Assembly (NCBI GenBank): GCA_026004615.1
Contig: BPJM01000001.1
Location: forward strand, 251,482 to 315,481
DNA from: Planctomycetota bacterium
GTDB taxonomy: Bacteria; Planctomycetota; J058; J103
Length of the DNA: 64,000 bases
Direction: 5' to 3'
Shown here piece by piece: positions 46,099-47,385 of the stretch. Positions within the stretch are counted from its first letter, which is position 1. Every line of letters starts with the position of its first letter. The translations under genes were made by a program, and so were the position numbers. Under the pieces are notes generated by a model that saw nothing but the letters and a program-made list of their open reading frames with translations, ran no database searches and was not told the origin of the DNA.

Positions 46099-47385
46099 TC
46101 AGACCGACATGCTCTCCTGCCAGCGGATGAACTGCTCCATCTCCTCCGGACTGGTCTGCGGCGTGATGCGCTGCGCGGCGTGCTCGAAGTCCGCCCGCGT
46201 CAGCTGGCGCACCCGCAAGCGGTAACCGCGCACCGCCTCCAGGCCGCGGTCGACGAGCTCCGCCAGCTCGGGGTTCATCTCCGCGATCATGCGGTTCTGC
46301 ACCTCCTTGGCGAACCGCTCCAGCTCCCGGCCGCTGTAGCCGGCCGTCATCTCGACCAGCTCCTCCAGCGGCACCTCGCTCGCAAACCCCTTGGCGGCGA
46401 AGTGGATGTTCAGGATCGCGGCGCGGCTCGCCGCGTCGGGCAACGGGATGAGCACCTTCTTGTCGAAGCGCGACAGCACCGCCTCATCGAGATCCCAGGG
46501 ACGGTTGGTGGCGGCGATCGTCAGCACGTAGATGTCATCCCGGCCCTTCTCGGCCAGCCCATCGAGCTCCGCCAGGATGGTCGACAGCAGTCGCCGCTCC
46601 GCCCCCGAATCCTCGCGGTCACGCGAGCCGGCGAGCGCATCGAACTCATCCAGGAACACCACCGAGGGCGAGGCATCGCGTGCCTGCCCGTACAGCTCGC
46701 TGACCAGCCGCGCCGACTCGCCGAAGTACTTGGACATGAGCGAGCTGACCTTGACGTTGTAGAACACCGCACGCGTCTCGTGTCGCGCGCTGCGCCGCAA
46801 CGCGTTGGAGGTGGCGGCGGCCAGCAGCGTCTTGCCGGTGCCGGGAGGGCCATAGAACATCATGTTCCGAAAGCGGCTGACCCGCACCCCCTCGGGCGCC
46901 TGCGCCAGCGAGAGTGCAAGCGCATACTTGATCTCGCGCTTGACCTCCTCCAGCCCCCCGATCTCGTCCCAGGTCACGCTCGAGGCTGTGATGAGCCCGG
47001 CGACCGCACTGGCCAGCGCCTCGTCGTCCTCGCGCGCCACCGAGCCTGCACGCCGCTCCAGGCCCGCGGCACCGCTCGCTCGCCCGCCGGCGGCGGGCTG
47101 ATCCTGCCGGTCGGCGGCCGGCTCCGCGCCGCGGCCCCGCTCGTGCACCGGCGGCGCCTCGCCGGCGAGCAGGCGCTTGCCCACCTCACGGAAGCGCAGC
47201 GCATCCTTTTTGTGCTTGTATTCCGAGCGCCGGTCGGGCGCGTTGTGGGCGAGCTTGAGCGCCAGCCGCGACGCCAGCTCGTAGTCCGCGGCCGCGCGCG
47301 CGTCCTCGCCTGCCAGATAGCGCTTGCGCGCCCGCTCCAGCGTCTGTACCAGCGCGCGCCTCAGATCCGTGCTCAGATCGACCAT
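46099..47385 (-). CDS. Vps4-like AAA+ ATPase with MIT-like N-domain (copy 2)
   Basis: ATG at 47385. N-terminus: [51 protein letters not shown] (MIT-like). [64 protein letters not shown] (compare Vps4 ATNIPW.LD.A..RRFE.RIYIPLPD), and a C-terminal helix ..[15 protein letters not shown]. Confidence 0.85.
   Translation of the reverse strand: [428 protein letters not shown]

Follow-up and report, generated by a model that had tools for sequence, protein, structure and literature searches.

In eukaryotes and in Asgard and TACK archaea, the AAA ATPase Vps4/CdvC (ESCRT-IV) dismantles the ESCRT-III filaments that cut membranes. Does a bacterium carry an ATPase that works on an ESCRT-III polymer in the way that Vps4 does? 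Recent reviews describe bacteria as lacking an ESCRT-III/Vps4-type pairing (PMC7619361; PMC10936438), and one of them, from 2025, states that a Vps4-like ATPase appears to be absent in bacteria, so that PspA/Vipp1 polymers are regulated otherwise (PMC7619361). We analyzed a 64,000-nucleotide stretch of the genome of a Planctomycetota bacterium (NCBI GenBank assembly GCA_026004615.1, contig BPJM01000001.1, positions 251,482 to 315,481 of the forward strand; hereafter the window), in which one minus-strand gene, designated AAA2, had been singled out from its sequence as encoding a Vps4-like ATPase (hereafter the original prediction). We observed that AAA2 adjoins a gene for a Snf7-family ESCRT-III protein, designated E3a, and that this linkage is tight and conserved across bacterial phyla. 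Architecture and gene context together make it probable that AAA2 remodels ESCRT-III-type polymers as a member of a subfamily separate from canonical Vps4 and CdvC.

The AAA2 protein and its Snf7-family neighbor

Because the GC content of the window is 74%, long chance open reading frames (ORFs) are plentiful in it. The AAA2 ORF spans window positions 46099-47385 on the minus strand and encodes 428 amino acids plus a stop codon (46099-46101). Its codon-position GC (0.67/0.54/0.89) is coding-like, its product contains one Pfam AAA domain (PF00004, E = 1.9e-34), and its best database matches (at least 120 protein clusters) share 51-76% identity with it. These matches align over 94-100% of the length nearly throughout, a few being partial proteins, and all of those bearing a source name come from Planctomycetota metagenome-assembled genomes (MAGs). 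Codon-position GC, the Pfam match, and the homologues thus mark AAA2 as a genuine gene rather than an ORF arising by chance. Homologues also back a start at 47385 (MVDLS...), 28 nt past the stop of the upstream gene; a longer alternative ORF reaching 47514 would overlap that gene by 100 nt. Every motif quoted in the original prediction was located in the translation, in the order given: GPPGTGKT at residues 179-186, the pore-loop string at 218-228, FLDEFD at 244-249, the sensor 1/Arg-finger stretch at 289-317, the C-terminal string at 412-426, and the N-terminal strings at 16-50 and 57-72.

An AlphaFold2 model of AAA2 was built on 72 homologues (mean pLDDT 84.1, pTM 0.73). The N-terminus is modeled as three helices (5-24, 28-47, and 52-73), with pLDDT mostly above 90, and is followed by a linker that is disordered at residues 90-114 (pLDDT below 50) and differs in length between homologues, as seen from gappy alignment columns. 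A single AAA fold and a terminal helix (413-427) complete the model, so that the linker, lone cassette, and C-terminal helix of the original prediction are all present. The parts of the gene are as follows, the motifs from Walker A to the Arg-finger region being invariant in the 72 homologues.

46099..47385, minus strand: AAA2, ATPase with MIT-like domain, AAA cassette, and C-terminal helix (Pfam, homologues, AlphaFold2)
47146..47385, minus strand: MIT-like three-helix N-domain, residues 1-80 (AlphaFold2, PDB profile search, hhalign)
47011..47145, minus strand: Gly/Ala/Arg/Pro-rich linker, predicted to be disordered, residues 81-125 (pLDDT, alignment gaps)
46438..47010, minus strand: large AAA subdomain (Pfam, alignment of homologues)
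46828-46851, minus strand: Walker A, GPPGTGKT
46702-46734, minus strand: pore loop 1, SKYFGES
46639-46656, minus strand: Walker B, FLDEFD
46504-46512, minus strand: sensor 1, ATN
46456-46473, minus strand: Arg-finger region, SRFDKK
46150..46437, minus strand: lid (small AAA) subdomain, with invariant SGRE at 46324-46335 (AlphaFold2, alignment)
46105..46149, minus strand: C-terminal helix, residues 413-427, of Vps4/katanin/fidgetin type (Vps4_C, PDB profile)

Residues K185 (Walker A), D246 and E247 (Walker B), N294 (sensor 1), and R306 are invariant across the homologues. With its catalytic residues intact, the enzyme should therefore be active.

To characterize the N-domain, a profile of 29 AAA2-family N-domains was compared with all PDB sequences. 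The top match (1wr0, E = 0.006), the VPS4B/SKD1 MIT domain, aligned from one end to the other (residues 4-73 against 8-77), and further VPS4A or VPS4B entries followed (4u7y, 2jqh, 2cpt, 1yxr, 2jq9, 7l9x, and 2zam). Eight distinct VPS4A/B sequences thus stand among the top 22 matches, six of them isolated MIT domains and two full-length VPS4B. The remaining matches were TPR repeats, which are to be expected because MIT domains are TPR-like, and assorted helical proteins. Each of these E-values is individually marginal; the assignment is credible because the VPS4 matches are consistent, in register, and located at the N-terminus of an AAA ATPase. Among related representatives, 5 of 65 match the Pfam MIT model. 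The MIT-like three-helix domain of the original prediction is thus confidently modeled and finds its best PDB match in the VPS4B MIT domain, and we regard it as a credible MIT-like domain by likeness of fold and sequence only.

Directly downstream of AAA2 lies the gene on which much of the argument turns.

45394..45990, minus strand: E3a, predicted Snf7-family ESCRT-III protein, 198 aa (Pfam Snf7, PDB profile, Foldseek)

Among 45 E3a relatives, 31 match Pfam Snf7 (PF03357) at E <= 0.01 (best 6.5e-8), and none of the 45 family members matches PspA_IM30 (PF04012). The E3a family profile found only seven PDB matches at E <= 10, all of them CHMP3, Snf7, or CHMP2A, the best at E = 0.0012 and near full length. 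In its AlphaFold2 model (pLDDT 72.9), a long helical hairpin (7-49/52-109) is followed by shorter helices, and ESCRT-III proteins take all of the top 21 Foldseek places for this model, Vipp1 and PspA ranking below them. The N-terminus MGLFKSK is invariant and resembles those of CHMP proteins. Consistency across the family therefore identifies E3a, at the level of sequence and predicted fold, as a Snf7-family ESCRT-III protein. The C-terminal helix of E3a also carries near-invariant D180, I183, and L187 with the spacing of a MIM1 motif, (D/E)xxLxxRLxxL; we treat this spacing as a lead toward MIT docking.

A ten-gene cluster conserved across bacterial phyla

AAA2 and E3a belong to a cluster of ten genes, all on the minus strand and separated by short intergenic gaps, in the order MerR-type gene, E3c, E3b, AAA2, E3a, kinase 1, AAA1, 664-aa gene, 288-aa gene, and kinase 2. 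The members other than AAA2 and E3a are these.

49025..50455, minus strand: MerR-type winged-helix protein, 476 aa, first gene of the cluster (Pfam MerR_1, E = 1.7e-7)
48161..48961, minus strand: E3c, 266-aa coiled coil with a Pro/Ala-rich tail (conserved position; no informative matches)
47414..48052, minus strand: E3b, 212-aa coiled coil directly upstream of AAA2 (conserved adjacency to AAA2)
43692..45233, minus strand: Ser/Thr protein kinase 1 (Pfam Pkinase, E = 1.9e-33)
42484..43635, minus strand: AAA1, second MIT-like AAA ATPase ("copy 1"), 383 aa (Pfam, NCBIfam, phmmer, alignment)
40430..42424, minus strand: 664-aa protein whose orthologue has SPFH/Band_7 and a weak beta-propeller match
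39560..40426, minus strand: 288-aa protein with segments that look by eye like hydrophobic membrane spans (conserved in the cluster)
37732..39939 from stop to stop, true start internal, minus strand: kinase 2, with Pkinase, FHA, and RDD (membrane) domains (domain scan)

The same gene order, with or without AAA1, was found in four further Planctomycetota MAGs (loci L001, L002, L017, and L018), in an Acidobacteriota MAG (L005), and in L020, and the cluster is conserved also in the Planctomycetota MAGs L024/L025 and L026/L027. At L024/L025 the precomputed annotation places the AAA gene against a gene annotated as Snf7. Only AAA2 is present at L001 and L017, and only the AAA1-type ATPase at L026/L027. 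Rhodopirellula and Planctomycetaceae MAGs (L003 and L004) likewise combine AAA2 with an E3a homologue (E3a HMM E ~1e-15). Many homologues of AAA2, E3a, and E3b share identical reported longest-contig values, which suggests that they lie on the same contigs. Housekeeping genes border the cluster, and where this border includes the FGGY kinase, the window and L018 are syntenic.

AAA1 has the classic RPGRFD Arg-finger motif and a Vps4-type C-terminal helix, and hhalign shows its N-domain and the AAA2 N-domain to be homologous (probability 95.4%, E = 1.8e-8). The AAA1 N-domain profile found its top PDB match in a chitin synthase 1 fragment of 74 residues (2mpk, E = 0.0067), a MIT domain; calpain-7, which carries MIT domains, appeared lower among the matches (E = 0.48). 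The closest labeled relative of AAA1 is an archaeal protein (L014, 242 bits).

Upstream of AAA2, E3b begins with ...IFEQLFGRKK and ends in an acidic tail, EEKLAKRLEEE. Its hhalign match to E3a is in register and weak (E = 0.003, probability 10%), and E3b counts as a candidate divergent ESCRT-III protein. Between E3c and E3a hhalign found no match. The terminus ...RRLELE of E3c is kept in three of six aligned orthologues, the others reading ADLE, ATVE, and AQVE. Both coiled coils are of ESCRT-III-like size, hydrophobic in their N-terminal motifs (...LFGRKK and ...IKSLF), and acidic in their C-terminal tails. Nitrospira has an annotated E3b homologue.

Of the remaining genes, the MerR-type one is found at the same position in L001, L002, and L018, and an HTH_17 protein stands there in L020; in L017 the gene at that position encodes 257 aa and has no Pfam match. 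The MerR-type protein joins an N-terminal winged helix to about 380 C-terminal residues that contain no known domain, and may be a regulator or a winged-helix/ESCRT-II/CdvA-like adaptor. The 664-aa protein (633-664 aa across loci) has no Pfam match in its window copy; its L018 orthologue (13203-15104) matches Band_7 at 24.8 bits, above the cut-off of 23.6, and PQQ_2 weakly. A Pkinase + RDD gene occupies the matching relative position in L018 and in L026/L027. The SPFH protein, the RDD-anchored kinase, and the hydrophobic 288-aa protein point to the cytoplasmic membrane, and the two kinases with the FHA domain point to phospho-regulation.

Several of these components recall archaeal ESCRT loci, among which Makarova et al. 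2024 describe STK/STP genes in the "Main" clade, FHA genes in "Halo_FHA", and SPFH genes in "Meth_adaptin" (PMC10936438). The window cluster resembles them in its two kinases, FHA domain, and SPFH-type protein. Unlike them, it belongs to a bacterial host, has a MerR-type protein in the winged-helix position, and showed no detectable arCOG09748/08177-type, CdvA, or adaptin-like proteins. For bacteria, Ravi et al. 2024 (mSystems) reported that VPS4-like ATPases were transferred to several phyla including Planctomycetes, exemplified by ACB74714.1 of Opitutus, with snf7 displaced by a TPR + 6TM gene in the bacterial loci (PMC11237479). In contrast to those loci, AAA2 is flanked by a Snf7-family gene and two more coiled-coil genes. 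Whereas the published verrucomicrobial description mentions a TPR + 6TM partner only, the Opitutales MAG locus L006 has a weak E3b homologue at 4879-5601, upstream of its VPS4-like ATPase (hmmsearch E = 9.7e-6; hhalign E = 3e-4). In the literature covered, which excludes subscription-only papers, we found no description of a bacterial operon of Snf7 and a MIT-AAA (Vps4-like) ATPase.

Placement of AAA2 among AAA ATPases

The original prediction assigned AAA2 to the Vps4/CdvC type and, more broadly, to the meiotic clade. When the full model was compared with PDB by Foldseek, p97 D2, katanin, FIGL1, Vps4, and spastin all matched at E ~1e-17, so that Foldseek by itself assigns no clade; only the TM score and root-mean-square deviation (rmsd) lean toward the meiotic side. 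The best target-normalized TM/rmsd values belong to katanin, FIGL1, Metallosphaera sedula Vps4, and spastin (0.84-0.86, versus 0.77-0.81 for p97 D2), and the best superpositions are those of katanin 6b5c (TM 0.85, rmsd 2.8 Å) and FIGL1 4l16, which together span TM 0.84-0.85 and rmsd 2.8-3.1. The structural comparison thus favors the proposed relatives in its superpositions, though not in its E-values. An NCBIfam scan did not discriminate either, because the scores for PAN (178 bits), CDC48 (177), and CdvC (162) are similar; these and FtsH (126) all lie far under their cut-offs, and the TIGR01243 match (177 bits against a cut-off of 803) covers the D2 part only. With phmmer against PDB, two-cassette proteins lead the ranking because their cassette scores sum, and the best single-cassette protein is spastin (5z6q, 157 bits), with p97 D2 alone at 140. 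In a search of representatives, the top 150 were mostly multi-cassette proteins and bacterial relatives, with no labeled eukaryotic or archaeal Vps4 among them.

Because Foldseek, NCBIfam, and PDB phmmer did not discriminate, a labeled reference set was assembled. Yeast Vps4, human spastin, katanin, FIGNL1, and ATAD1, and Methanocaldococcus jannaschii PAN were validated against PDB, being nearly identical to the deposited chains over their full length (2.1-2.2 bits per residue); p97 D1 and D2 were taken from the PDB alignment, and Escherichia coli FtsH from the genome. In per-domain phmmer, the AAA2 cassette scored highest with archaeal MIT-AAA proteins from the genome scan (167-220 bits), followed by spastin (155 bits), katanin (149), p97 D2 (142), yeast Vps4 (140), PAN (139), AAA1 (138), p97 D1 (127), ATAD1 (100), and FtsH (96). 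A neighbor-joining tree (285 columns, 200 bootstraps), which is distance-based and holds few references, grouped AAA2 and its bacterial relatives with five archaeal proteins (L007-L010 and L012) at bootstrap 96, and p97 D1, PAN, and FtsH are excluded from this grouping at the same value. The closest archaeal relatives are from Aeropyrum, Acidilobaceae, Acidianus, an Aenigmatarchaeote, and one further archaeon. The Opitutales relative (L006) falls in the same clade, and single-cassette relatives at 40-53% identity occur in Sumerlaeota and Proteobacteria. The tree, whose deeper nodes have low bootstrap values, does not place the cassette outside the meiotic clade; it sets AAA2 in a subfamily of its own.

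The meiotic clade of classical AAA ATPases takes in katanin, spastin, fidgetin, Vps4, and Msp1; its typical signatures in AAA2 are the SK[WY]xGE pore loop, the lack of a PG insertion, and the extra C-terminal helix. Pore loop 1 reads SKYFGES (compare SKWMGES in Vps4 and SKYRGES in katanin); the meiotic-type loop that had been claimed is thus present but is not diagnostic alone, because AAA1 shares it. NRPW follows sensor 1 in AAA2 as in Vps4, katanin, and CdvC. In an alignment with the references, p97 D1/D2, PAN, FtsH, and AAA1 (RPGRFD) have an insertion of two residues, PG, ahead of the Arg finger; AAA2 lacks it, as do Vps4, katanin, spastin, FIGNL1, ATAD1, and CdvC-like sequences. Pfam found neither CDC48_N nor Peptidase_M41 in AAA2, and only the single cassette. 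A profile of its last 57 residues gave six PDB matches at E <= 10, the top five being FIGNL1 (best E = 0.001) and katanin and the sixth unrelated, and Pfam Vps4_C matches 57 of the 72 family members at E <= 1 (best 1.8e-5); with the modeled helix 413-427, the Vps4-type C-terminal helix of the original prediction is borne out.

A number of results weigh against reading AAA2 as a Vps4/CdvC-type ATPase with an ESCRT-III partner. Pfam reports no MIT match in the AAA2 protein of the window, Vps4_C scores 15.2 bits on it (E = 0.022), under the cut-off of 21.3, and the CdvC model, with its cut-off of 650, scores below both PAN and CDC48. The relations of the AAA2 clade to the AAA1 clade, to the Vps4-Asgard-katanin-spastin group, and to p97 D2 have bootstrap values of 46 or less. 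Within the SRFDKK region, the absence of PG is as in Vps4, but the first of its two adjacent Arg fingers is replaced by an invariant Ser (S305-R306), so that this motif is Vps4-type in part only. The Vps4-specific beta-domain, whose presence the original prediction had put up for checking, is absent: an insert of about 25 residues in two helices stands where yeast Vps4 has about 45 residues, and AAA2 therefore has no Vta1/LIP5 site. Because the aligned archaeal CdvC-like sequences also lack it, this absence bears on the eukaryotic type of Vps4 only. On the side of the partners, the window copy of E3a scores 21.7 bits with Pfam Snf7, under the cut-off of 27.3, and neither Pfam nor PDB profile searches linked E3b or E3c to Snf7 or PspA. 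The module does not always include AAA2, given that some loci carry a single one of the two ATPases, AAA1 or AAA2; AAA2 is to that extent dispensable. Finally, the archaeal relatives of AAA2 score 195-236 bits on the CdvC equivalog (cut-off 650) and are thus not canonical CdvC, whereas a Bathyarchaeal sequence (496 bits) and an Asgard sequence (363 bits) fall elsewhere in the tree. Since AAA2 groups with archaeal proteins that are not CdvC, it belongs to a distinct MIT-AAA subfamily common to bacteria and some archaea. A grouping of AAA2 with CdvC, in which the Aeropyrum, Acidilobaceae, and Acidianus proteins were taken as CdvC, was dropped on these NCBIfam results.

The position of S305 is occupied by Asn in the Acidianus relative and by Ser otherwise across the subfamily. 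The AAA2 lid motif reads SGRE with an invariant Arg (R353), SGR[ED] in the subfamily as a whole, versus SGSD in Vps4 and SGAD in katanin; that R353 compensates for the lost Arg finger is speculation. The archaeal MIT-like AAA genes lie at 4432-5646 in L008 (Aeropyrum) and at 7758-8873 in L012 (Acidianus), each with a short coiled-coil gene upstream, and a kinase gene follows the ATPase gene in Acidianus. The upstream coiled-coil genes were considered as E3b homologues and rejected, as hhalign found no similarity to E3a, E3b, or E3c. These loci are possibly an uncharacterized archaeal counterpart system.

Set against known ATPases, AAA2 resembles Vps4 and CdvC in the order of MIT-like domain, flexible linker, single AAA cassette, and C-terminal helix, in its SK[WY]xGE pore loop, NRPW, and PG-less Arg-finger region, and in the adjoining Snf7-family gene. 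It differs from them in forming a clade (bootstrap 96) apart from yeast Vps4, Asgard Vps4, and CdvC-like sequences, in the Ser at the first Arg finger, the SGRE lid, and the missing beta-domain, and in being bacterial and often accompanied by a paralogous second MIT-AAA ATPase. The claim of a Vps4/CdvC type rather than an FtsH type therefore stands for the architecture and for the exclusion of FtsH, and has to be narrowed to a separate subfamily that is not canonical Vps4 or CdvC. By the usage of Makarova et al. 2024, a protein is assigned to Vps4 if it has a MIT domain or if ESCRT genes lie nearby (PMC10936438). AAA2 appears to have both and so qualifies, judged from sequence, as a Vps4-family protein, while phylogeny and the CdvC model set it apart as its own subfamily. 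Likeness to katanin, spastin, and FIGNL1 is seen in the best single-cassette match (spastin 5z6q), the best superpositions (katanin and FIGL1), and the matches of the C-terminal segment, and several AAA2 family members are annotated by JGI as katanin p60. Unlike katanin, spastin, and fidgetin-like 1, AAA2 lacks their RR Arg pair, and its locus has no tubulin or RAD51-type partner, its neighbors being ESCRT-III-like.

We also considered whether AAA2 is a general unfoldase or quality-control ATPase of the Cdc48, PAN, or Msp1 kind that disassembles no ESCRT-III, its coiled-coil neighbors being coincidental or regulatory. The PAN and CDC48 scores slightly above that of CdvC, the Foldseek E-values for p97 D2 equal to those of katanin and Vps4, and the low bootstraps of the deep nodes would all fit such an enzyme. 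AAA2 has, however, a single cassette without a Cdc48 N-domain, OB ring, or protease; it combines a MIT-like N-domain with a meiotic-type C-terminal helix and no PG insertion; and its linkage to a Snf7-family gene is kept across phyla. We therefore regard a general unfoldase as very unlikely. Collectively, sequence and model make it likely that AAA2 is a classical AAA ATPase of the Vps4/katanin type with one, catalytically competent, cassette, and we hold this jointly with the ESCRT-III-remodeling function set out below.

Proposed function and its meaning for Planctomycetota

In our proposed model, which we consider likely, AAA2 uses ATP to remodel ESCRT-III-type polymers at the cytoplasmic membrane. 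If it works as Vps4 and CdvC do, AAA2 would assemble into a hexameric ring or spiral. [quoted passage not shown] The pore loop K219-Y220-F221 would then pull subunits through the central pore by an ATP-driven mechanism, and the membrane-bound polymer would be disassembled or remodeled as a result. For the cellular process that this may serve, we rank membrane repair or stress response first, vesicle or internal-membrane remodeling second, and division third.

The first of these processes would make the module an envelope-stress or membrane-repair system, a Snf7-type counterpart of PspA/Vipp1, which we put forward tentatively as one possibility. In such a system, ESCRT-III-like proteins may patch the membrane, the SPFH protein organize the site, the ATPases recycle subunits, and the MerR-like protein and kinases sense damage or regulate the response; this division of labor is likewise tentative. 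For the superfamily, repair or stabilization has been inferred as the ancestral role, and PspA in bacteria is tied to Band-7/SPFH partners and winged helix-turn-helix regulators (PMC7619361; PMC10936438). The cluster, for its part, holds an SPFH-domain gene, a MerR-type gene, and membrane-anchored kinases, occurs in several phyla whatever their mode of division, and sits among housekeeping genes. The likeness to PspA/Vipp1 (IM30) thus consists in a bacterial ESCRT-III superfamily member with SPFH/Band-7 and HTH associates. It does not extend to E3a itself, which is nearer to eukaryotic and archaeal ESCRT-III, matches Snf7 and not PspA_IM30, and ranks CHMP and Snf7 structures above PspA and Vipp1 in Foldseek. 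PspA systems, moreover, are not known to require a Vps4-type ATPase, and the AAA+ protein PspF, a sigma-54 activator, is no homologue of Vps4 (PMC7619361).

Alternatively, the module may be a Cdv-like cytokinesis machine, in which a Snf7-type polymer and Vps4-like ATPases constrict or sever the membrane during the budding or fission of FtsZ-less Planctomycetota. This reading is attractive because Planctomycetota divide without FtsZ, and new FtsZ-independent systems have been proposed (PMC12283558; PMC6952346). TACK archaea divide by means of ESCRT-III with Vps4 (PMC7615534), the AAA2 family is abundant in Planctomycetota MAGs, including those of Rhodopirellula and Planctomycetaceae, and control of the cell cycle could come from the kinase and FHA genes. 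The distribution argues in the other direction, with the cluster found also in an Acidobacteriota MAG and relatives in Sumerlaeota, Nitrospira, Proteobacteria, and Opitutales. Several phyla that carry the cluster or its relatives have FtsZ, and gene content varies by locus (AAA1 only or AAA2 only). Because of this occurrence in FtsZ-bearing phyla and this variable content, the case for cytokinesis is weakened, and we consider it unlikely.

A role in antiphage defense was also weighed, in which the cluster would be an abortive-infection system whose kinases and AAA ATPases trigger membrane disruption. PADLOC models of IetA (110 bits) and TRIP13 match both ATPases, and PD-T4-6 kinase models match kinase 1. 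These matches are generic and weaker than those to archaeal MIT-AAA proteins, spastin, and katanin, and none was found by PADLOC in the other six proteins scanned. The flanks are housekeeping genes, part of them (the FGGY kinase) syntenic between genomes, and the gene order is stable across phyla, unlike that of typical defense islands. We accordingly give defense hardly any weight.

Apart from the cluster, the window contains the following features.

2591-5284, plus strand: DEAD-box helicase with MrfA Zn-binding (MZB) domain
20361-25271, plus strand: 1636-aa PKD/REJ-domain protein
31399-33117, plus strand: ThiS-rhodanese-ThiF fusion
53156-55006, plus strand: Kelch beta-propeller + TIG protein
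58000-64000 (last 6 kb): GC falls from about 0.74-0.77 to 0.67-0.70

In summary, our preferred reading is that AAA2 acts on ESCRT-III-type polymers formed by its Snf7-family neighbor. If AAA2 does not act on this neighbor, the finding shrinks to another uncharacterized AAA subfamily. As it stands, the conserved cluster contradicts, at the level of gene content, the statements of absence made in reviews. It offers a bacterial system in which to study ATP-driven ESCRT-III remodeling, and a new data point on the origin of ESCRT-III/Vps4, whether by vertical descent or by inter-domain transfer. It also brings to a long-standing question, how Planctomycetota divide without FtsZ or what drives the dynamics of their internal membranes, a concrete candidate that can be tested. 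In the most far-reaching version, many Planctomycetota and some Acidobacteriota, Sumerlaeota, Verrucomicrobiota, and others would possess a complete, functional membrane-scission machine of the ESCRT-III/Vps4 type, made up of one or more Snf7-family polymers with one or two MIT-AAA disassemblases and regulated by kinases and an SPFH scaffold, which would serve as the long-sought division or budding apparatus in FtsZ-less planctomycetes; we think this improbable at present. Were it true, the pairing of Snf7 and Vps4 would predate the archaeal-bacterial split, or an ancient inter-domain transfer would have brought it into the PVC (Planctomycetes-Verrucomicrobia-Chlamydiae) lineage.

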